DNA of 64,000 nt from Candidatus Lustribacter sp. (GTDB lineage: Bacteria; Vulcanimicrobiota; Vulcanimicrobiia; Vulcanimicrobiales; Vulcanimicrobiaceae), in NCBI GenBank assembly GCA_965277805.1, contig OZ255842.1:640001-704000 (forward strand), written 5' to 3'. A program made the position numbers and the translations under genes. Below are positions 10,008-41,293 of this stretch, piece by piece. The first letter of the stretch is position 1. Each line of letters starts with the position of its first letter. The notes beneath the pieces were generated by a model, which made no database searches, was not told the origin of the DNA, and was given only the letters and a program-made list of their open reading frames with translations.

Positions 10008-10065
10008 GAGCGGCTCCGTTCAAAGCATGGAAAGACCAACCCTCCGCTAAAATACCGGCTTGGCC

Positions 10066-11160
10066 ATGGCCGTCAGTGAAGCGAACGTCACCGTCACCGT
10101 CGACGGATTGTACAAGTCCTACACCGATCAGAAGCGTGTGGTCGGTGCCGTGCGCGGCGTGAGCTTCACAATTCGCGAAGGTGAGTTCTACACGCTGCTC
10201 GGACCGAGCGGCTGCGGCAAGACGACCACGATGCGCTGTATCGCCGGCCTCGAACAGACGGAACGAGGCGAGATCTCGATCCATGGTCAGCTCGTGTCCT
10301 CACCAGAAAAGAACGTGTTCGTTCCGCCCAACAAGCGCGACATCGGGATGGTGTTTCAGAGCTACGCGATCTGGCCGCACATGACCGTGTTCCAAAACGT
10401 AGCCTTTCCGCTCAGCGTGGCCGGCGTCCGCAGCGGTTCGAAAGAGATGCGCGAGCGCGTCGAGGAAGCGCTGGCGCTGGTCGAAATGGAAGACTACGGC
10501 GACCGCTTCGCAACGCAGCTCTCCGGCGGCCAGCAGCAGCGCCTCGCGCTCGCGCGTGCGCTCGTCCGCCGGCCGGCGCTCTTGCTCTTGGACGAGCCGC
10601 TCTCGAACCTCGATGCGCGGCTGCGCGATACGATGCGGACCGAGTTGCGCTCGCTGCAGCGCCGTCTCGGGATCACGACGCTCTACGTCACGCACGATCA
10701 GACCGAGGCGTTGAGCATAAGCAGCCGCATCGCGGTCATGCAAGACGGGCAGATCGTGCAGGAAGCGACGCCGCGCGAACTCTACCGCTCGCCGGCGAAC
10801 GCCTTTGTGGCGGAGTTCCTGGGCGTGAGCAATCGCATTCCGTGCACGGTCGCCGAAACCGGTGCCGTCGACACGAGCTTTGGCCGGGTGCAGCTCGCAA
10901 GCTCGGGCGCAGCTAGCGGCGCGACCGGCGTCGTGACGATCCGTCCCGAGCATCTGCGCCTGCACCGCAGTAGCGCGGCGCTGCCGAACGCCTTTGCGGC
11001 GCGCATCGCCTCGATCTCGTTCTTCGGCGAGCAATCGGAGTGCCACGTCGAGCTCAACGGCGCGACGTTGCGCGCGCGCGTGCCCTCCGATACGGAGTTC
11101 GCCGGCGGCGACGACGTGTGGCTCGAACTGCCCGCGCCGTCGTGCCGGCTGATCCTATGA
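10066..11160 (+). CDS. ABC transporter ATP-binding protein (PotA/FbpC type with TOBE domain)
   Basis: GPSGCGKT, LSGGQQQR, LLLDEP, YVTHDQ; TAAAAT lies shortly upstream, alternative TTG start at 10060. Confidence 0.95.
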   Translation: MAVSEANVTVTVDGLYKSYTDQKRVVGAVRGVSFTIREGEFYTLLGPSGCGKTTTMRCIAGLEQTERGEISIHGQLVSSPEKNVFVPPNKRDIGMVFQSYAIWPHMTVFQNVAFPLSVAGVRSGSKEMRERVEEALALVEMEDYGDRFATQLSGGQQQRLALARALVRRPALLLLDEPLSNLDARLRDTMRTELRSLQRRLGITTLYVTHDQTEALSISSRIAVMQDGQIVQEATPRELYRSPANAFVAEFLGVSNRIPCTVAETGAVDTSFGRVQLASSGAASGATGVVTIRPEHLRLHRSSAALPNAFAARIASISFFGEQSECHVELNGATLRARVPSDTEFAGGDDVWLELPAPSCRLIL

Positions 11161-12296
11161 CCGTCACGCGCCGGCGCGACTTTCTGCGTGCGGGCGCGGC
11201 CGCGGCACTGGCGGCGTCGGCCGCCGCTCCGGCAAGCGCCGCAATCAGCTATCAGAAACCGCCGGCTTGGGATGCGCTCGTGCGTGCCGCCACTGCAGAA
11301 GGCGCGCTCGTGCTCTACATTCCCGAGGGCGATGAGTACGAAGCGGCGCTGGTCACGCGCTTTCAGCGTGCGTTCCCGGCGATCAAGGTGACGAGCGCGA
11401 TCAACAGCGGCGCCGGAATCTCGCGCATCATCGTGGAGCGCTCGGCCGGGCGTTACATCCCCGACATTTGGGTTCAAGGCAGCACGATCGCGCTGCTCCG
11501 CCTCAAGCCGGTCGGCGCGCTGGCTACGCTGGATCCGCTCATCATTCTGCCCGAAGTTCTCGATCGCTCCGCATGGCTGCAGAATCAATTGTGGTGGAAC
11601 GACGCGCAGAAGCCGCTTACCAACATCAGCTTCGCCGGGTTGATGCTGCCGCCGGCCTTTGTCAACACCTCGATCGTGAAGCTCAGCGAGTTCAAATCGT
11701 ACTGGGATCTGGCGGATCCGAAGTGGCGCGGCAAGATCGCGGTCACCGACATCCGCACGATCGGGCCGGGCAGCGTGCCCGCGAGCTTCGTCTACCGGCA
11801 TCCCAAACTCGGTCAACCGTGGTTCGAGCGGTTCTTCGGCACGCTCGACGTCACGCTGAGCCGCAGCCAGCGCCAAATGGTCGACTGGTGCGTGCAAGGG
11901 CAGTATCCGATTATCGCGTTCACGTCGGCGACCGAGGCCTATACGGCGATGCAGCAAGGATTGCCGATCGAGCAGATCGCGCTCGAGCAACTCCGCGAAG
12001 GCGGTGCCGTCGGGCCCAATACCGGTTCGATCTCCGTGGTGAAGCCGGCGCCGCACCCCAACGCCGCAAAGCTCTATCTGAACTGGCTGCTTTCACGCGA
12101 GGGTCAACTCGCGTGGCAAGAAGAGACGAAGCAGTGCTCGCTGCGTCTCGACACGCCCAAGGATGGTTTGTATTTGGCGCCGCGCATGCACGCCGGCATC
12201 ACCTACGCCAACGGCGGCGCCCAAGAATACGGCGAAGCGGCGGCCGCCCTCAACGACGTGATCACCGGGATCTTGAAAAAGGCGGGGAAGGCCTAA
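11157..12296 (+). CDS. ABC solute-binding protein, close paralog of 7903..9042, Tat signal
   Basis: RRRDFLRAG; shares ISY.KP..WD, LWWND, SYWDLADPKW.GK and APHPNAAKLY.NWLLSREGQ with 7903..9042. Confidence 0.85.
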   Translation: MTVTRRRDFLRAGAAAALAASAAAPASAAISYQKPPAWDALVRAATAEGALVLYIPEGDEYEAALVTRFQRAFPAIKVTSAINSGAGISRIIVERSAGRYIPDIWVQGSTIALLRLKPVGALATLDPLIILPEVLDRSAWLQNQLWWNDAQKPLTNISFAGLMLPPAFVNTSIVKLSEFKSYWDLADPKWRGKIAVTDIRTIGPGSVPASFVYRHPKLGQPWFERFFGTLDVTLSRSQRQMVDWCVQGQYPIIAFTSATEAYTAMQQGLPIEQIALEQLREGGAVGPNTGSISVVKPAPHPNAAKLYLNWLLSREGQLAWQEETKQCSLRLDTPKDGLYLAPRMHAGITYANGGAQEYGEAAAALNDVITGILKKAGKA

Positions 12297-13339
12297 CCGC
12301 GGACTTGCGCGAGCTCGCGAGCGCGTTTGAACGAGTCTTTATCCTTCACCGCAAACGCTTCGAGACGCGCGTGCTCGCGCGGGATGCGGATCATCGGTTC
12401 GTTCTCGGCCGGGTCGCGCACGAGCGCGATCGGATCCTCACCGCGCTCGACGCGCTTCATGTTTTCTTCCAGCAGTTTGTGGTAGAGGATCACGCCTGTG
12501 TCGCCGGCCGTGAGGTGCTCCTGCGTGCGATCGGCGATCGGCCCTTGCGCCACCCAGGCAATGAAGTCTTGTTTGGGGATCGTGTCGCCGTACGGCGCTT
12601 CGTCGCCGTCGAAGAGATTCAGATAGCGCACCGTGAGTGACTTCGGCTCCGCGCCCGGCGCGCGCGCGATCGTGCGGTAACCGATCTGGATCGTGTTCGT
12701 GTCGTCGACCGGAATGCGATACTGAAAACTCGCCTCGCCGGTCTGGCCGACGGCGAGCAGGTTCGGGAAAATAAGCGGATGACCGGTCGTCCAGTCGTCG
12801 CAGTCTTCGCTCGAGCCTTCGAGCAGGCGCCGCTTCATGATGCCGAAGCGGTAGACGTCGAAGGCGATCTTCAAATGCTGTGCGGGCTCCATCATCGGCG
12901 GCTTGCCGAGCCGCGCGCGTTCGTAGTTGCCGAACCGTGCGTGCAAGAATTCGAAGTGCACCGGATCGACGGAGTTGTCCATGCACTGCAGCCAATTGCA
13001 CGGCAGCGCCACGATCTCGACCGCACGATCGAGATCGTCCGCAACGAGAATGTCCCAGCGCGGCAAGAGCGGTGCCGGCTGCGGTCCGAAATAGGCGAAC
13101 AGCAAGCCGCCGAGTTCTTGCACCGGATAAGCCGCGTGCGCGGCGGCCAGGCTGAAGCTGCCGCTCGGTTCGCGCCGCAGGCTGAGGTCTTCCCCGAAAA
13201 AACGCACGGCTTTCACCGGAGCGGCGTCGAGCTCGATCGCGGCGCCGATGGGGTGCCAATAACGCCGCAAGAGGTTGCCCATCGGGGTTCCGGGCCCGAT
13301 TTGCGTCAACCGTTCGTTCTGCGATTGCGTCGTCGCCAT
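12293..13339 (-). CDS. Rieske-oxygenase alpha-subunit homolog (phthalate 4,5-dioxygenase-like) lacking the Rieske [2Fe-2S] cluster segment
   Basis: GPGTPMGNLLRRYWHP N-terminus, catalytic NWLQCMDNSVDPVHFEFLH and QD all present; no CxH/CxxH anywhere. Confidence 0.8.
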   Translation of the reverse strand: MATTQSQNERLTQIGPGTPMGNLLRRYWHPIGAAIELDAAPVKAVRFFGEDLSLRREPSGSFSLAAAHAAYPVQELGGLLFAYFGPQPAPLLPRWDILVADDLDRAVEIVALPCNWLQCMDNSVDPVHFEFLHARFGNYERARLGKPPMMEPAQHLKIAFDVYRFGIMKRRLLEGSSEDCDDWTTGHPLIFPNLLAVGQTGEASFQYRIPVDDTNTIQIGYRTIARAPGAEPKSLTVRYLNLFDGDEAPYGDTIPKQDFIAWVAQGPIADRTQEHLTAGDTGVILYHKLLEENMKRVERGEDPIALVRDPAENEPMIRIPREHARLEAFAVKDKDSFKRARELAQVRG

Positions 13340-13367
13340 AGCTGTACTATCCGCCGCTCCGGCAGGG

Positions 13368-15062
13368 CTACCTGCTCGAGCGCAGGCCGACGTTCAAACC
13401 GAGCGTGCGCACGAGGATCGCCATGACGGTGGTGATCGCGGTAATGACGACCGTGATCACCGTCGCCGCTTCGCGCTGACCGTCGGCGACGAACCCCAAG
13501 GCCAGGAGCGAGAGCGTGCGCGTATCGGACGTCGCCAGCAGGATGATGTTCGATGTCGCGTTGGCGGCGTACATGAACTTGATCGCCGCCACCACGATGA
13601 GGGTCGGCGCAATCAGGGGCAGCACGATCTGGAAGTACGTGCGGACCCAGCCGGCCCCCGACATGCGCGCACTCTCCTCGAGATCGCCGCGCAGCTGCAG
13701 GAACGCCGCCTTGAGCGTTTGCGTCGAGAGCGTCATGCCGCTGAGGACGATCGCGATGACGAGCACCCAGATCGTGCCGTAGATCGGCCGGAAGATCGGC
13801 GTGCCGACGAACATCCACAATAGGCCCAGACCCGCGAGCGCGCCGGGAATCACGCTCGGCAGCCACAACAGAAAATCGAGTACGCCTTTACCCCAGGCCA
13901 CGCGCGCACGCACGAGCACATATGCCACGACCGAGAAGATGATCGGCGCGACGACGGCCGAGACGATCGCGATCTCGAATGTGTTGAACAGCGACTGATC
14001 GAAGGCGGGCGTGCTCAACGTGCGCTGCCAGTTGCCGAGCGTCCACGGGTGTGCGAGGGTGAAGAAGCCGAAGCGCGTCATGAAGCTGCCGGCGATCACC
14101 GACGCCAGCGGAACGGCCACGAGTAACCCCACGACCCCGGCGATCAGCACGAATACGGGCCACGTCCAGCGGCCGAGATCCATTTGCGCGGATTGGATGC
14201 GGCCGGTCACAGTGGTGTAGCTGCGGCGCGTCGTGAGCCAGCGCTGCACCGGCATCGCGATGAGCAGCAGCACCAGCGTCACGCTGCCGAGCGCGGTCGC
14301 CTGACCGAGCAGCGGCGGCACCTGTTGCGCGAGATCGACGATCTTCGTCGAGAACACGTAGAACCCGAACGGCACGCCGAGCAGCAGCTCGATCTCGAAG
14401 GATTCGAACAGCCGCACGAAGCCGAGGAAAAACACGATCACGAGCGCCGGGGTCATGATCGGCAACGTCACGCGCAGCAGCGTGCGCCAGCGATCGGCGC
14501 CCGACGTGTAGCCCGCTTCTTCGAGCGCCGCATCCATGTTGCGAAAGGCCGGCGTCAGCAGGATGACTTTCTCGGAGATGTCGCGGGCCATCAAGTGCAC
14601 CCAAACGATCCCGGCAAAGGAATAAATATTGAACGGTCCCGCGACGTGAAACGTCGTGGCCAGAAAATTGTTGAACACGCCGCGCGGATCGAGGAGCAGC
14701 ATCCACCCGAGCGTCGCCGAAAGCGGCGGCAAAAAGTACGAGAGCCAGAAGCCGAACTCGAGCGCCCGTCCGAACGGGACTTTGCTGCGGCCGAGCAGCC
14801 ACGCGAGCAGGATGCCGACGGGAAACGAGATCGCTTGATAGCATAGGCCGACCGCGATGGTATTCCACAGCGCTTGGCCGAGCCCGGGCCCGCGCCACGC
14901 ATCCGCCCACGCCCGCGCCGAATACGCCGGCGCTTGACCGGGCCCCGCGACGTTGAAGCTGTTGATGACGATCAGCGCGAGCGGGTAGACGACGAAAAAG
15001 CCGATCACCGCGATCAGCAGCAGCACGACGAGCTGCGCCGCGCTTGGCCGGGCGCGTGTCAT
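13368..15062 (-). CDS. ABC transporter permease, fused two-domain FbpB/ThiP type
   Basis: Many TM helices; two EAA loops (LEEAGYTSGA, LEESARMSGA); ATG 15062 overlaps the upstream stop. Confidence 0.9.
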   Translation of the reverse strand: MTRARPSAAQLVVLLLIAVIGFFVVYPLALIVINSFNVAGPGQAPAYSARAWADAWRGPGLGQALWNTIAVGLCYQAISFPVGILLAWLLGRSKVPFGRALEFGFWLSYFLPPLSATLGWMLLLDPRGVFNNFLATTFHVAGPFNIYSFAGIVWVHLMARDISEKVILLTPAFRNMDAALEEAGYTSGADRWRTLLRVTLPIMTPALVIVFFLGFVRLFESFEIELLLGVPFGFYVFSTKIVDLAQQVPPLLGQATALGSVTLVLLLIAMPVQRWLTTRRSYTTVTGRIQSAQMDLGRWTWPVFVLIAGVVGLLVAVPLASVIAGSFMTRFGFFTLAHPWTLGNWQRTLSTPAFDQSLFNTFEIAIVSAVVAPIIFSVVAYVLVRARVAWGKGVLDFLLWLPSVIPGALAGLGLLWMFVGTPIFRPIYGTIWVLVIAIVLSGMTLSTQTLKAAFLQLRGDLEESARMSGAGWVRTYFQIVLPLIAPTLIVVAAIKFMYAANATSNIILLATSDTRTLSLLALGFVADGQREAATVITVVITAITTVMAILVRTLGLNVGLRSSR

Positions 15063-15919
15063 GAGATGCGGTAGCGTCCTTCCAGCGTCACGTAATCGTT
15101 GAGGCCGACGAGACTCGTCAGATCGTCGAACGCCACCATCGGCGGCCCGGCCGGAATATCGTCGGCGACCAGTGCTGCGAGCGCCGCTTGCATCGCGTAG
15201 ACGGCTGCCGGCAGCACGACGTTGTACGTCACGACTTTGAAGCCCATCGCGCGCAAATCGGCGCGGCTGACGACCGGCGTTTTCGGCATCATGCTGGCCC
15301 ACGTGTACTTGAACGAGCCCGCGAAGCGGCGCATCTCCTCGATGCCGGCGAGCGCCTCGATGAAGACGATGTCCGCACCTTCCTCGACGAAATCGTTGCA
15401 CCGTGCCAGCGCTTCGTCGAGCCCGTGACCGGAGCGCGCGTCGGTGCGGCCGATGATCACGATATCCTTCGCGCCGCGCGCATCGACGGCCGCGCGCATC
15501 TTCATGCGCGCCTCGGCCCGCGAGATCACTTCCCGCGCGCCGCCGTAGTGCCCGCATTTCTTCGGCCACACCTGGTCCTCGATCAAGAGCGACGCCGCCC
15601 CGGCCTTGGCGAACTCGGTGACGGTGCGGCGCACGTTCATCGCGTTGCCGTAGCCGGTATCCGCGTCGGCGATGATCGGAAAGCCCGGCGTCGCGTCGCA
15701 CGTGTTGCGGATCTGATCCAGCACGTCGGTGAACGTGATCAAGCCGGCGTCCGGCAGGGCGTAGCGGTGCGCCGAAATGGCAAACCCGCCGAGCAGCGCG
15801 ATCGGGACGCCGCTGCGCTGGGCGAGGCGCGCCGAGAGCGGATCGCCCACGAGGGGGCAGAGCAGCAGGTCGTCGTTCGCGAGCAGCTCGCGGAACGTCG
15901 CGGTAGCATTCGTTTCCAC
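15059..15919 (-). CDS. Isocitrate lyase/PEP mutase superfamily protein (methylisocitrate lyase/2,3-dimethylmalate lyase-like)
   Basis: DPLSAR, LPDAGL, IADADTGYG, IEDQVWPKKCGH, GRTDA; GTG start after AAGGGGG. Confidence 0.9.
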   Translation of the reverse strand: METNATATFRELLANDDLLLCPLVGDPLSARLAQRSGVPIALLGGFAISAHRYALPDAGLITFTDVLDQIRNTCDATPGFPIIADADTGYGNAMNVRRTVTEFAKAGAASLLIEDQVWPKKCGHYGGAREVISRAEARMKMRAAVDARGAKDIVIIGRTDARSGHGLDEALARCNDFVEEGADIVFIEALAGIEEMRRFAGSFKYTWASMMPKTPVVSRADLRAMGFKVVTYNVVLPAAVYAMQAALAALVADDIPAGPPMVAFDDLTSLVGLNDYVTLEGRYRIS

Positions 15920-15995
15920 GCGACCCCCTTCTGCGAGGGAACCGGCATCCATCCAGCGCAGTTCGGCCCATGCGCCATCTGAGCGGGCAAATACA

Positions 15996-34767: not shown

Positions 34768-35094
34768 CTACACGCTAACGTAGATCATCCCGTCTTCGAT
34801 CATCACCGGAAACGTGACGGCCGCCAGGTCGGGGTTGGTGACGCTCTTGCCGGTGGCGAGGTCGAAGCGAAAGCGGTGCCACGGGCAGATGATCTCGCGG
34901 CGACCTTCGTGCAGGCAGCCCTCGTCGAGCGGCGCGCCTTTGTGCGGGCACGCATTGGAGAACGCATACACGTCGTCGTCGACGCGCATCAGCGCGATCT
35001 TGCGCCGGCGTACGGTTTCCAAACGCAGGGCGCCTTTCGGCAATTCGTCCAGCCGGCAAACGGCTTCGCGGGTGGTGTCGGTCGTGCTCATCAT
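34768..35094 (-). CDS. Rieske [2Fe-2S] ferredoxin
   Basis: NACPHKGAPL and ICPWHRFRFDLATG; 108 aa. Confidence 0.92.
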   Translation of the reverse strand: MMSTTDTTREAVCRLDELPKGALRLETVRRRKIALMRVDDDVYAFSNACPHKGAPLDEGCLHEGRREIICPWHRFRFDLATGKSVTNPDLAAVTFPVMIEDGMIYVSV

Positions 35095-36246: not shown

Positions 36247-37448
36247 GTGGAGCTCGACGAACGACCCGACACCAGCGACACCATTGCGACCGGCACTCAC
36301 TTTTACGATAAGTTGGTCCGGGAACGCCGGCCGGGGAGTACCTGCGCCGGTTCTGGATGCCGGTGGCGCTGCTCGATGACGTGAAAGCCGGTCGCGCCAA
36401 GACGATCAAAATTCTGAGCGAACTCTTCACCTACTATCGCGGTGAGAGCGGCGCCCCCCACTTAGTCGCGAACGAATGCGCGCATCGGCACACGCGGCTG
36501 GCGCCGCACGGTCGGGTTGAGGAAGACTGCATCCGCTGTTTCTATCACGGCTGGATGTACGACGCGACTGGTCAGTGCCTCGAGCAACCGGCCGAGGGGC
36601 GCGAGAGCTTCGCCCACAAAGTCCAGATCAAGGCTTATCCGGTCCGCGAATACCACGGAATCGTGTTTGCGTACTTCGGCGCCGGCGAGCCGCCCGAATT
36701 CCAGCATCTCGATCTGTTCGACGGTCCCGGCGTTCGTGAAGTTGGATCGTACGTCCGCCAGACGAACTTCTTCAACTCGCTCGACAACCAGGCCGACTGG
36801 GTGCACGCGAACTTCGTGCACTACCGCTCGGAGTTCACCAAGATCGGCATTAACCGCGCGATTCCGGTGGTCAGCGCCGAGGAAACCGAGTACGGTCTCA
36901 AGGGCTACCTCACGTACGACGACGGCGTCGTTGGGGTGAATTTCGTGCTAATGCCGATCGGCATGTACATCATCGGGTCTGGCTCGCGCATCAACGACGT
37001 GGATGGCCTGGTGTACATTCACCAGATGGCCTGGCGGACGCCGATCGACGACCACAGCCACCGCTCGTTTAACATTTACTACGCCGACGTCACCGGTGAG
37101 GCGGCCGAGCGGTTCTCCGCGGCGCGGGCTCACGCGCGTCAAGCCTCGACCGACATGCCCGGTCGCGCCGAGATCATGAACAAGATCTACAGCGGCGAGC
37201 TGCACGTCGACGAGGTTGACGAGTCGCGCCCCGACATCGTCGGCATCCAGGACACGGTCACGATGGAGATGCAACGGCCGATCAGCGAACGCGAACCCGA
37301 TCGGCTGGGCCGTTCCGATGCGGCCGTGATCGTGCTGCGCAAGATGTACATGCGTGAAATTCGCAAGATGCTCAACGGCGAGCCGATCAAGCCGTGGAAG
37401 TGGCCGCGCGAGCTGAAGGCCGAGCCGCAGTTTGTCGAGGTTCCATGA
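36247..37448 (+). pseudogene. Rieske oxygenase alpha subunit with a 1-nt deletion near the 5' end; otherwise intact (main ORF 36357..37448)
   Basis: GGGGAG RBS then GTG 36247 reads VELDE...FYDK; one added base at about 36311 continues VGPGTPAGEYLRRFW. CAHR..CFYHGW, DNQADWVHANFVH and QD motifs present. Confidence 0.75.
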
Positions 37449-38527
37449 CGCGGCTTTCACGCGGCCAGGTGCTGAGCGGGCTCGCCGCCGTCGCCGCCGT
37501 CGCGGCGACCCCGCGTCCGGCGCGAGCGGCCGCGCTGAACGATCTCGTTGCGGCTGCCAAGAGCGAAAAGGAACTCAGCTTCATCGCCGGCAGCGACACG
37601 TTTGGTGGCGCACCGGGCATGAGTGCGCTCAACGATGCCTTCAACCGCAAATTCGGGCTCAACGCGACGCTCACGCTAACGCCGGGGCCGGCGATGACCG
37701 TGATGGGCTCGCGTCTGTTGACCGAGTATCAGGGTAATCACACCGCCTCAACTGCGGCCTATATCGGGCCCTTCTCGCAGTTCGTTGCGCTCAGTCGCGC
37801 AGGCGCATTACAAAAGGTCGATTGGGTCGGAACCTTTCCTTGGGTCACCCGCGCGATGGTCGTCGACCCCGACAGCGTCGGGATCCTGATGCGTACGGGT
37901 CCCAACGGCATGCTCTACAATCCGAACGTGCTGCCGCCGAATCAGGCGCCGAAGAGTTACGAGGATCTCGTAAACCCCAAAGTCAACGGGCCGTGGAATA
38001 AGAAGCTCGCGCTGGCGCCGTATCCGGACTGGCTTGCGATGCTCTCGATCAGCTGGGGCCCCGAGCGCGCGAAGGCGCTCGCCACTAAAGTCGCCGCCGT
38101 GGCGGGCGGGGCGCTCCGGTACGGTGACGCGCAGCCGCTGATCGACGGGCAATTCGCGCTCATGGCAAACGAGGGTTCGTGCCTCGAGCTCAAGTGGGCG
38201 TGGGAGTCGAAAAACGTTCCTTTCAACGTCGTCTTCGGATCGAACCCGGTGGTGTGCGATTACTTCCAAATGGGCGTGCCGAAGAACTCGCCGGCGCCGC
38301 ACTTGGCGCAGTTGTTCGTCGGGTTCGGGACGACGCCCGAGGCCCAGGCGATCACCGATAAGTTCGGCGGCCAGGGTTCGCATCTCGTGCCCGGCACGCG
38401 CATCTACGCATTCATTCGCTCGCAGCGAATTACGTTGCAGGATCCGCGGCGCGTCTACGCTTTCTTTTCCGATCCGTCGACATCGGCGCTCTACGACGAG
38501 CTTGGCAAAATCATCCGGCTCTCATAG
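37445..38527 (+). CDS. ABC solute-binding protein (AfuA/Fe3+-like family)
   Basis: Signal peptide; AAAKSEKEL, PKSYEDL, PKNSPAPHLAQLF...PEAQ. Confidence 0.82.
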   Translation: MTRLSRGQVLSGLAAVAAVAATPRPARAAALNDLVAAAKSEKELSFIAGSDTFGGAPGMSALNDAFNRKFGLNATLTLTPGPAMTVMGSRLLTEYQGNHTASTAAYIGPFSQFVALSRAGALQKVDWVGTFPWVTRAMVVDPDSVGILMRTGPNGMLYNPNVLPPNQAPKSYEDLVNPKVNGPWNKKLALAPYPDWLAMLSISWGPERAKALATKVAAVAGGALRYGDAQPLIDGQFALMANEGSCLELKWAWESKNVPFNVVFGSNPVVCDYFQMGVPKNSPAPHLAQLFVGFGTTPEAQAITDKFGGQGSHLVPGTRIYAFIRSQRITLQDPRRVYAFFSDPSTSALYDELGKIIRLS

Positions 38528-38531
38528 CCGG

Positions 38532-40232
38532 ATGACGTTTGGAGAGGCTTTGCGCGGCCGCGGCACCATCATCGCGATCGCGGTAGTCGGCGTTGCTGCG
38601 ACCGCGCTCGCGCTCTTGATGACGATCCGCCTAGCCTTTCAGGGCGCTACCCCGGATTCGTTCACGTTGGCCAACCTCGGAACGGTGTTTGCGGATCCGT
38701 TCGTGGCGCATGCGTTGCTCAACACGCTCGGATTCGCAACGGTCACGGGTCTGACGGCGTTCGCGTTTGGCGTGCCGATCGCGTGGCTCGCCGAACGCAC
38801 CGATCTTCCCGGGCGCGCCATCGTCATGCCGCTAATGACGATCGGACTGCTCGTGCCGGGTTTTTTCAATGCGATTGGCTGGCTCTTGCTCTTGCACCCC
38901 CGGATGGGCATGATCAACGTTTGGCTGATGCAAGGCTTACATCTCGCGAGCGCACCGCTCAGCGTGGTGTCGGTTGCGGGGATGGGCGTCGTCCAGGGCC
39001 TCGGTCTGGCCGCGCTAATGTTCGTGATGTGTGCGGCGGCGTTTCGCGCCCAAGACGCCACCCTCGAGGAAAGCGCGCAAGTGCACGGCTTGCGTTTCTT
39101 CGACCGGCTCGTTCGCATCACGCTACCGTTGATGTGGCCGAGCCTGCTCGCGGCCGGGATCTACGTGTTCATGGTGGGGCTTGCGGTCTTCGACGTGCCG
39201 GCCGTCATCGGGCTCAGCAACCGCATCTACACGTACAGCACGTTCGTATACGACCTTACCAACCCGAGCGCCGGCGGCCGCCCGAATTACGGCGTTGCGG
39301 GGGCATCGAGCCTCATCGTCATCTTGCTGGCCGGACTGCTCGGAACGTGGTATTTCCGCGTCGTGCGCCGTTCGCGCCGTTACGCCGTGGTGACCGGCAA
39401 AGGCTATCGGCCCGCGCCGTTCAGGCTCGGGCGCCGCGCCGTCGCGGCGTGGGCGTTCATCGCCGCATACCTTACGCTGAGCCTCGGGTTGCCGGGCTGC
39501 GTCCTGCTGTGGGCCTCGTTCTTGCCCTACTTCGCGCCGTTCTCGGCTGATGCGCTGGCGCGCGTCTCGCTTGCGAATTACGCGACGATTCCCTGGGCTG
39601 CGTTCTGGCACGCCGCGCTCAATAGCGCGATCGTCATGATTAGCGTTCCAACGATCACTATAGCGCTCTCGCTGGCGATATCGTGGGTCGTCGTGCGCTC
39701 GGGACTGCGTGTGGCGCGCGTCTTCGACGTCCTGGCGTTTCTGCCGCTCGCGATCCCGAGCGTCGTGTTCGCGGTCGGCGCCGCGGCCATCGCAATTTTT
39801 TGGCTGCCCCCGTGGATCCCGTTCTACGGCACTGTCGGTATTCTCATCGCGGTGCAGGTGATCGTCCAGTTGAGCTTCGGCACGCGGGTGCTCAACAACG
39901 CCCTCTTGCAAATTCATCGCGACCTCGACGACGCCGGTGCCACGTTCGGTCTGCGCGCGGTGGACGTGATCTGGCACGTGCTGCGGCCGCTGGTCGGCCC
40001 GGCGCTGCTGTCCGCGTGGCTTTGGATGGGTCTGCTCGCCTATCGCGAGCTGACCGTCGCGATGATGCTCGTGACCGATAAGAACATCACGCTTCCGGTC
40101 TTCATCTGGGGCGTCTACAGCGAAGGTCAGATCGGGCAGGCTGCGGCGCTGACGATTTTGCTTGGATGCGCGATCGTGCCGCTGATCGTGGCGTATTTCG
40201 CGGTCGCGCGGCGTGGCACGGCACCGGCATGA
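38532..40232 (+). CDS. ABC transporter permease, fused two-domain FbpB type
   Basis: AWLAERTDLPGR, LEESAQVHG, YAVVTGKG, LDDAGATFG. Confidence 0.9.
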   Translation: MTFGEALRGRGTIIAIAVVGVAATALALLMTIRLAFQGATPDSFTLANLGTVFADPFVAHALLNTLGFATVTGLTAFAFGVPIAWLAERTDLPGRAIVMPLMTIGLLVPGFFNAIGWLLLLHPRMGMINVWLMQGLHLASAPLSVVSVAGMGVVQGLGLAALMFVMCAAAFRAQDATLEESAQVHGLRFFDRLVRITLPLMWPSLLAAGIYVFMVGLAVFDVPAVIGLSNRIYTYSTFVYDLTNPSAGGRPNYGVAGASSLIVILLAGLLGTWYFRVVRRSRRYAVVTGKGYRPAPFRLGRRAVAAWAFIAAYLTLSLGLPGCVLLWASFLPYFAPFSADALARVSLANYATIPWAAFWHAALNSAIVMISVPTITIALSLAISWVVVRSGLRVARVFDVLAFLPLAIPSVVFAVGAAAIAIFWLPPWIPFYGTVGILIAVQVIVQLSFGTRVLNNALLQIHRDLDDAGATFGLRAVDVIWHVLRPLVGPALLSAWLWMGLLAYRELTVAMMLVTDKNITLPVFIWGVYSEGQIGQAAALTILLGCAIVPLIVAYFAVARRGTAPA

Positions 40233-41293
40233 TCGCGGCGCGTGGCATCGTCCGCGATTTTCGCACCGGCGACCGCGCCGCGGCAGCGCTGGGCGGCGTT
40301 GATTTGACGATCGCAACCGGCGAATTCCTCGTTCTGCTCGGCCCGAGCGGCTCGGGGAAAACGACGCTCTTGCGCTGTGTGGCCGGACTGGAACGTCCGG
40401 ATGCGGGCGAGATCGAGCTCGCCGGCGTGCCGGTGTTCTCGGCGGCGCGCAAGATCGACGTGCGCCCCGAGGATCGCCGGCTCGGCATGGTGTTCCAATC
40501 CTATGCCGTCTGGCCGCACCTAACGGTGGCGCAAAACGTCGCGCTGCCGCTGACGCGCGGCGTGAACCGGATCGCGCGCGCCGACATGATGGCGCGGGTC
40601 GCGCGCGCGCTCGCTGCCGTGCAACTCGCGGCGCTCGGCGATCGGCCGGCCACGCTGCTCAGCGGCGGTCAGCAGCAGCGCGTAGCGCTCGCGATCGAGC
40701 CGCGTGCGCTGCTGATGGACGAGCCCTTAAGCAATCTCGATGCGCGGCTGCGCGGGGAGATCCGCAGCGAAATCAAAGCGACGGTCGCGCAGATCGGGAT
40801 CACGGTGTTGTACGTCACCCACGATCAGGACGAGGCGATGGCGCTCGCCGATCGCATCGCCGTCATGGACGGCGGACGCATCGTGCAGAGCGGTACGGCC
40901 GAGGATCTCTATCGCCGCCCGCTGACGCCGCGCATCGCCGAGTTCTTCGGGTCGATCAACTGGATCGCGGGCACCGTGCGCGCTCGGGGCATGGTCGAGA
41001 CGGCACTCGGTGCGCTGGCGGTGCGGAGCGACGCCCCGAGCGGGGCCGTGATGGTGGGAATTCGACCCGAGGATGTCCAGATCGCTAAGGTTCGAAATGG
41101 AACGGTCAACATGTTCGAAGCCCAGGTCGTCGACGATCGTTATGTTGGCGACCACCGGATTTGCCGCATTCGCGCGGCCGATTCTGTAATCACTGCAAAG
41201 CTCTCGCCCGATCGCGAGTATTGCGCCGGAAGTTCGGTCTGGGTTGGGCTACCCGCGGACCGGCTCCACGCATTTCCCTCGCAAACCGATTAG
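40229..41293 (+). CDS. ABC transporter ATP-binding protein (PotA/FbpC type) with a 4-aa deletion after the signature motif
   Basis: GPSGSGKT, LSGGQQQRVALAIEP (RALA missing), LMDEP, YVTHDQ. Confidence 0.9.
   Translation: MIAARGIVRDFRTGDRAAAALGGVDLTIATGEFLVLLGPSGSGKTTLLRCVAGLERPDAGEIELAGVPVFSAARKIDVRPEDRRLGMVFQSYAVWPHLTVAQNVALPLTRGVNRIARADMMARVARALAAVQLAALGDRPATLLSGGQQQRVALAIEPRALLMDEPLSNLDARLRGEIRSEIKATVAQIGITVLYVTHDQDEAMALADRIAVMDGGRIVQSGTAEDLYRRPLTPRIAEFFGSINWIAGTVRARGMVETALGALAVRSDAPSGAVMVGIRPEDVQIAKVRNGTVNMFEAQVVDDRYVGDHRICRIRAADSVITAKLSPDREYCAGSSVWVGLPADRLHAFPSQTD

Follow-up and report, generated by a model that had tools for sequence, protein, structure and literature searches.

A LigXa-like Rieske oxygenase subunit of Candidatus Lustribacter that lacks the cluster-binding insert, and evidence that such losses recur

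Delta1, a gene at 12293..13339 (− strand) in a 64,000-nucleotide stretch (herein the window) of DNA from the uncultured soil bacterium Candidatus Lustribacter sp., encodes a LigXa-like Rieske oxygenase alpha subunit from which one in-frame deletion took the cluster-binding insert, leaving the β-sheet base of the Rieske domain and the entire catalytic domain in place. The window corresponds to C1:640001-704000 of the source genome (G000; one contig, 5.53 Mb); the open reading frame (ORF) starts at an ATG and encodes 348 amino acids (aa), and we refer to its product as P0001. In textbook Rieske oxygenases the Rieske cluster of one alpha subunit passes electrons to the iron of the next alpha subunit. 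An earlier note, made from the sequence of the window alone, had drawn attention to the missing segment; beyond what was claimed there, the excision is one case of a recurrent pattern.

A Pfam scan of P0001 returned PF19301 LigXa_C (E = 2.1e-12; 47.3 bits against a cut-off of 27) and no match to the PF00355 Rieske domain, and a motif scan of the translation did not find the Rieske ligand motif C.H..C..H. The earlier note had read a clean excision from comparison with a paralog in the window (31454/31472-32758, + strand; Pfam Rieske domain E = 5.7e-19), and this is borne out: in the paralog 54 residues, counted on the translation, separate GAASL from SYPV. That protein shares only 21% identity with P0001 (BLASTP E = 4e-15), with a 47-column gap opposite CPH...CFYHGW; as it is so distant, the nearest homologs make the appropriate reference. 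In a 10-sequence alignment P0001 is 66 to 78% identical over aligned columns to its nearest relatives of 402 to 404 aa, and a single 54-column gap is common to three short proteins, with no inserted linker. Relative to the 402-aa homologs, the lost 54 aa comprise CPHR...CAYHGW plus the loop that follows. The junction AAAHA (residues 65 through 69; 13133..13147, − strand), located by alignment with the 402- to 404-aa homologs, lies where the note had placed it, but the note had taken these residues for a linker replacing the lost segment. Since LAAAH/AAYPV of P0001 (slash at the junction) aligns with the flanks LVARR/.../TAYPV of the full-length proteins, for a net loss of 54 aa, AAAHA is instead diverged flank.

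The motif D125-x-x-H128-x4-H133 (12941..12967, − strand), which comprises the bridging Asp and two His iron ligands, and the iron carboxylate ligand D258, in IPKQD (12566..12568, − strand), align with Asp178, His181, His186, and Asp343 of phthalate dioxygenase KF1 (Protein Data Bank [PDB]: 7fjl). In that enzyme Asp178 is described as bridging, linking the two metal centers, with His181, His186, and Asp343 as iron ligands and Cys70, His72, Cys89, and His92 as Rieske ligands (PMC8649396); nothing in P0001 aligns with residues 67 through 99 of the 7fjl chain. D125, H128, H133, Q257, and D258 are invariant in an alignment of 61 sequences. The frame, the iron ligands, and the C terminus are intact, as had been claimed. 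Judged by these alignments, P0001 has a complete iron site and no cluster: the 2-His-1-carboxylate site, bridging Asp, and catalytic-domain fold of a Rieske non-heme iron oxygenase alpha subunit are present, and the ligands for a cluster of its own, the defining feature of that class, are absent.

An AlphaFold2 model of P0001 built on the 61-sequence alignment has a mean predicted local distance difference test score (pLDDT) of 88.9 and a predicted template modeling score (pTM) of 0.90; pLDDT is 92 to 98 in the blocks over the Rieske-domain remnant and the junction. The remnant (approximately residues 25 through 85; 13085..13267, − strand) is modeled as β-strands only (E28-33, 42-47, 50-56, 62-66, 69-71, 73-76, and 79-83), with no cluster ligands. 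The best Foldseek match of the model is phthalate dioxygenase 7v25 (E = 3.6e-19, TMq 0.68). Matches at a Foldseek probability of 1.00 include 7v25, 9ina, 7fhr, CarAa, SxtT, and NdmA (6ick, at rank 50), and the model also matches isophthalate dioxygenase and SxtT/GxtA structures.

The deletion in delta1 is not an artifact. A homolog search of 5.8 billion clustered proteins (8000 candidates scored; 4273 with E ≤ 0.001) gave, among the best 120 homologs, 118 of 391 to 422 aa with both PF19301 and PF00355 and two of 348 aa with PF19301 alone; the latter, P0003 (93% identical to P0001; 13 member sequences on six contigs) and P0004 (91%; 18 member sequences), carry the same deletion. Comparison of G000 with 40 relatives (seven genomes of the same genus and 33 from outside it) yielded full-length ungapped matches in G004 (92%) and G003 (95 to 99%, in two frames), and of 12 metagenome loci, one (L013, from a contig of 112 kb) has the gene in a form identical to the G004 copy. 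All of these close relatives share the deletion rather than carrying an intact domain. An intact delta1 ortholog was not found in these searches, the nearest full-length protein being P0005, from a metagenome. Five distinct junction alleles are represented (LAAAHAA, LGAAHAA, LAGERAA, LTAAHTG, and LTAAHAE). Logan contigs from two studies run straight across the junction: X1 record 7 (13055-13600) and X3 record 13 (13091-13331), from sequencing runs that may be the source sample, show no differences, X6 record 23 (12965-13197), from another study, shows nine, and X3 record 12 is a diverged variant. None of the crossing contigs (X1, X3, and X6) has a long insertion at the junction; only paired 1-nucleotide (nt) indels occur. 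Other matching runs (X5 and X7 through X20) share just small parts of the sequence, and none of the runs listed is an RNA data set, which has no bearing on whether the gene is expressed.

Delta1 is also under purifying selection and is not decaying. The ratio of nonsynonymous to synonymous rates (dN/dS, or ω) was estimated with three methods for three pairs, omitting an extra base of the G003 copy. G000 and G004 differ at 113 nt and 27 aa (ω 0.060 to 0.107), G000 and G003 at 52 nt and 8 aa (0.045 to 0.058), and G003 and G004 at 106 nt and 29 aa (0.069 to 0.127), so that dN/dS is 0.05 to 0.13 and not ∼1. Regional values (NG86) are 0.13 to 0.32 for codons 1 through 58, 0.63 to 1.45 for junction codons 59 through 72, and 0.03 to 0.09 for codons 73 through 348; only the deletion scar evolves freely. 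Four positions (E6S, Y62F, S269A, and I307V) set the four delta1 sequences apart from the ≥85% consensus of 58 full-length homologs, each by a conservative change; with so few changes, the surface that normally faces the Rieske center has not drifted. Signature substitutions marking a new interface were also considered, and nothing diagnostic emerged: Ala269 is also common in cluster-bearing relatives.

These results bear on whether delta1 could be an assembly artifact or a pseudogene on its way out, an explanation that is largely refuted and to which we give almost no credence. In its favor, the G003 copy carries a 1-nt insertion, and family members do decay in the source genome, in which two adjacent paralogs at G000:C1:1081558-1084364 (− strand) are each split over two frames (pseudogenes or local sequence errors). 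Against it, the same deletion is held by five distinct alleles and crossed by contigs from two studies, ω is low with dS up to 0.55, and the AlphaFold2 model is confident. We read the extra base in G003 as an assembly error because a hydantoinase gene in the same 4.7-kb locus is also broken, and set it aside as the mark of a pseudogene since that neighbor is broken twice and ω involving G003 is low (0.045). The G003 hydantoinase A ortholog falls into three frames over a span of 560 nt (L038 4135-4691, G003:C2), which suggests frequent indel errors in the 10-contig G003 assembly.

A hidden Markov model (HMM) built from seven full-length alignment rows was searched against the 10,258 stop-to-stop ORFs in G000 that are 200 aa or longer. 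It matched 116 LigXa-like ORFs, 111 with C.H..C..H and five without: P0001, two further cluster-less forms (delta2 and delta3), and the C-terminal pieces of the two frame-broken neighbors described above. Each of the seven other genomes in the genus has LigXa-like members; the 33 genomes of neighboring genera, orders, and classes have none. Rieske-oxygenase alpha genes as a whole are very strongly expanded in G000. Delta2 (G000:C1:3206108-3207391, + strand, loci L025/L028; G003:C9:87058-88014, L027) has the junction AFGIT/AGYPV and is flanked by a BNR/sortilin-like gene on one side and an NMT1-type binding-protein gene on the other. Its ortholog cluster, P0273 (94% identity), has 22 members, and PF00355 is missing in four of the best 120 matches to delta2. 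Additional cluster-less forms occur in G004 (345 aa) and G006 (377 aa).

Phylogeny points to repeated loss. In a tree of 86 G000 members (score ≥ 100 and HMM span ≥ 300, shorter ones being dropped) and 13 others, computed after masking of the Rieske columns, the cluster-less forms are spread over five distinct clades, in each of which they have full-length sisters; every cluster-less form is 63 to 79% identical to some full-length protein and 25 to 58% identical to any other cluster-less form. A finer tree pairs P0276 with the full-length P0275 (support 0.90) and P0286 with the full-length P0285 (0.998), and these pairings add two more losses. The trees and alignments together indicate at least seven independent excisions, of 46 to 57 residues each, in the LigXa-like family. 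One more, an eighth loss of the same subdomain, is found in a CarAa-like cluster-less alpha gene (G000:C1:568536-569462; Pfam Aromatic_hydrox), 2.3 kb downstream of which lies a small free Rieske ORF. D-x-x-H-x4-H and the downstream Asp are kept in all cluster-less forms, where readable.

Cluster-less forms may be widespread. A full HMMER search gave 4533 matches at E ≤ 0.001; among the best 150 50%-cluster representatives, 10 have the N-terminal motif without the Rieske motif, and these are mostly short, frameshifted, or more deeply deleted. A different kind of change is seen in P0137 (447 aa, full-length), which has CPYT for the second Rieske motif, CxxH, a His ligand having been altered by a point change. 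In the ESM Atlas, two LigXa_C clusters (145 and 137 members), commonest in Pseudomonadota, list no Rieske family, and a 51-member Vulcanimicrobiota LigXa_C cluster has Rieske in 12% of its members.

Delta3 offers a comparison of states before and after the loss. The gene (G000:C1:3948984-3950081, − strand; L029 6981-8081; stop-to-stop ORF 3948981-3950117; junction GTAGV/PSYP) is situated among housekeeping genes, with a His_biosynth-family gene immediately upstream of it and a GGDEF gene downstream. Comparison with loci L032-L036 shows that 55 aa are missing in G000, G003 (97%), and G004 (92%), and that the orthologs in G001, G002, and G006 are intact (86% identical; a 433-aa frame with CPHR...CVYHGW). 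The three deleted forms are monophyletic and therefore reflect one deletion event; the G000/G003/G004 subclade holds both delta1 and delta3. In the DNA, GGCAA(A/G) and AACAAG mark the two ends of the deletion, which fits a deletion at microhomology. Maximum-likelihood ω over 366 shared codons is 0.057 to 0.087 among deleted forms, 0.038 to 0.071 among intact forms, and 0.059 to 0.083 between the groups; constraint was not relaxed after the loss. The closest full-length relative of delta3 within G000 is 62 to 63% identical, and in the lack of any closer copy its activity does not obviously rest on a twin subunit. Delta3 and its intact orthologs form a natural matched pair for studying iron-site reduction without a built-in cluster, and for telling how far the Rieske domain serves as scaffold and not as wire.

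The genes adjacent to delta1 are transport genes, and the gene order around it is conserved. Directly upstream, across a 28-nt gap, lies a fused ATP-binding cassette (ABC) permease gene (13368..15062, − strand; Pfam BPD_transp_1), whose orthologs are 99% (G003) and 95% (G004) identical and in the same order; the same-strand run is headed by a phosphoenolpyruvate (PEP)-mutase/isocitrate-lyase family gene (15059..15952, − strand; Pfam PEP_mutase, E = 1.1e-36), syntenic in G003, G004, and L013. Convergent with delta1, and overlapping its 3′ end by 4 nt, is a solute-binding protein gene (11157..12296, + strand; Pfam SBP_bac_11/SBP_bac_1; syntenic, 92 to 98% identity), and the ABC ATPase gene of the same transporter, with a TOBE domain (10060..11160, + strand; Pfam ABC_tran, TOBE_2), is likewise syntenic. 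The order PEP-mutase-like gene, fused permease, oxygenase, convergent binding-protein and ATPase genes, and Amidohydro_2 gene is shared by G000, G003, G004, and L013; between G000 and G004 the neighbors are 91 to 96% identical, close to the 92% of the oxygenase. In G007 the orthologous permease gene (85%) abuts the ATPase gene, and the binding-protein and oxygenase genes are both absent.

Elsewhere in the window are four Rieske-bearing alpha genes and one VOC-Rieske fusion, in agreement with the earlier note. A small free Rieske ferredoxin ORF (34768-35094, − strand; PF00355 at G000:C1:674816-675064) has a class II aldolase gene on one side and the alpha gene at 36357 on the other. From 36357 to 41293 (+ strand) a Rieske alpha gene, an unassigned 360-aa ORF, a fused 566-aa permease gene, and a TOBE-type ABC ATPase gene follow a design like that around delta1, so that oxygenase-plus-importer modules recur within the window.

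Because the cluster was lost and selection retained, these enzymes would have to get electrons another way. The reading that we favor, and hold tentatively, is that P0001 may be a functional iron oxygenase that receives its electrons in trans from a free Rieske ferredoxin. It would still oxidize an aromatic substrate, which the adjacent ABC importer would bring in, and its iron site would be reduced by a separate Rieske-type [2Fe-2S] protein. The donor could be one of ∼15 small free Rieske ferredoxins, docking in the gap of the deleted insert; precisely the part that was removed could be supplied by a free Rieske protein. Of the 133 PF00355 matches in G000, 15 are in small ORFs that read as free ferredoxins. 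Reduction by such a ferredoxin is favored because of these 15 ORFs, the Rieske ORF near the CarAa-like gene, the sustained constraint on delta3 without a close twin, the nature of the removed part, and the precedent of NdmC, a component of the NdmCDE N7-demethylase of Pseudomonas putida CBB5 that has no cluster of its own and uses the Rieske domain on NdmD (PMC4408171).

Several observations weigh against reduction by a free ferredoxin. The 10 kb on either side of delta1 contain no Rieske ferredoxin, reductase, or other redox gene, the nearest Rieske genes being the VOC-Rieske fusion (317-1102; 11 kb off, with nothing found that links it to delta1) and the free Rieske ORF at 34768-35094, and neither delta2 nor delta3 has a donor redox gene beside it. 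A scan of 53 ORFs of the window at E ≤ 1e-5 revealed no glutathione S-transferase (GST)-like gene of the NdmE type. No NdmD-like Rieske-reductase fusion is seen among 20 non-alpha Rieske ORFs of G000, as judged by reading the ORFs rather than by a domain scan; they comprise small ferredoxins, bc1/b6f-type or membrane proteins, and other-type alpha subunits, with no reductase-sized extension. The extra base in G003 makes a recent pseudogene in that species conceivable. Lastly, a full-length and a cluster-less gene that overlap in G006 point to a mixed oligomer for that lineage.

Such an oligomer is the main rival, and as a general account we consider it unlikely. A cluster-less subunit would stand head-to-tail with a full-length paralog in a mixed trimer, the Rieske center of the paralog reducing its iron; this would give an existing enzyme an additional substrate pocket but leave each ring with one orphan iron site. 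Partners are plentiful, as 111 of the 116 superfamily ORFs in G000 carry CxH..CxxH, and the bridging Asp and flanking surface are unchanged. The best support comes from the G006 pair (L007 1375-3785, G006:C80, − strand), in which a full-length 425-aa alpha gene is followed by the 377-aa cluster-less paralog; the GTG start of the latter overlaps the stop of the former at L007 position 2508, which suggests coupled translation, and this lineage, on a long tree branch (0.44), recurs in metagenomes as P0128. However, the nearest full-length G000 paralog of P0001 shares only 67% identity with it, at a distance of 157 kb (the nearest full-length paralogs are at G000:C1:494166-495386 and 228163-229443), that of delta3 is no closer than noted above, and none of the four cluster-less G000 genes adjoins a full-length alpha gene. 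No published mixed alpha/alpha′ Rieske oxygenase was found in a literature search that was unfocused and is therefore weak evidence of absence; a steroid-hydroxylase review mentions “heterotrimer” once, and the other titles returned were unrelated.

Rieske oxygenases can turn over once with H2O2, and it is conceivable, if quite improbable, that no external electrons are needed, with the substrate or H2O2 supplying them (peroxide-shunt-like or substrate-driven) or the reaction being non-redox. The iron ligands are kept with every built-in electron entry gone, and a redox partner is present in no conserved neighborhood examined. Yet the bridging Asp, described as linking the metals (PMC8649396), is retained in every cluster-less lineage examined, and a switch in chemistry should have left more marks than four conservative changes and an unchanged ω in delta3. 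More doubtful still is a non-catalytic role, as a ligand-binding, regulatory, or structural subunit that needs the fold alone. Purifying selection shows function rather than catalysis, and the adjacent genes are transport genes; but the four metal-site residues are invariant in the P0001 set and in the other cluster-less lineages, and a binding protein could dispense with them.

If reduction in trans by a free ferredoxin were general, the repeated, selected loss of the insert in this soil lineage could have given rise to “socket” enzymes that share a free Rieske ferredoxin, so that many catalytic subunits would draw on a single pool of electron donors; this broader proposal is rather doubtful, as is its bolder version of peroxide- or substrate-driven enzymes that need no reductant. 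On either version, the rule that each Rieske-oxygenase alpha subunit needs its own cluster would fail. The sequences indicate at least eight losses by excision of the cluster-holding insert, with purifying selection unchanged afterward, where NdmC had been the lone exception. The cluster-less genes currently carry ordinary demethylase subunit names: homologs of P0001 are named 5,5′-dehydrodivanillate O-demethylase oxygenase subunit, which is a source name only, and neither P0001 nor delta3 nor the CarAa-like form has a match among the NCBIfam models. With its more than 100 oxygenases of this kind, the genus is likely to be important for soil aromatic carbon turnover.

Among known systems, the LigXa-like oxygenases (PF19301) share the N terminus, iron motif, and C terminus of P0001, and the Rieske domain is theirs alone. 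Phthalate dioxygenase of Comamonas testosteroni KF1 (7fjl, 7v25) is the closest solved relative by sequence (E = 8.7e-28; ∼21% identity) and by fold; it has Rieske ligands, which P0001 lacks, and receives electrons directly from a flavin-[2Fe-2S] reductase. CarAa/CarAc (PDB: 1ww9, 2de5), a homotrimeric alpha3 oxygenase with a free Rieske ferredoxin, exemplifies the type of donor proposed here; CarAc reduces CarAa’s own Rieske cluster, whereas in P0001 the ferredoxin would need to pass electrons straight to the iron site. Apart from NdmC, no cluster-less Rieske-oxygenase subunit was found described in the literature searched, and papers on proteins lacking Rieske, by their titles and abstracts, mostly concern respiratory or photosynthetic complexes, none of them Rieske oxygenases.

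NdmC lacks the whole Rieske domain; P0001 has lost the 54-aa insert only, and the base of its Rieske domain stays. P0001 also belongs to the LigXa_C branch, to which NdmA is only a distant structural match. The likeness is that both are non-heme-iron Rieske-family oxygenase subunits without a [2Fe-2S] cluster of their own, a condition for which NdmC is called unique in its review; there, the extra Rieske domain of the reductase NdmD is thought to serve the cluster-less NdmC, and the GST-like NdmE is required (PMC4408171). Unlike NdmCDE, P0001 has no adjacent NdmD-like or GST-like gene, and no Rieske-reductase fusion was seen in G000. P0001 would work most like NdmC, yet it is not a member of the NdmCDE system.

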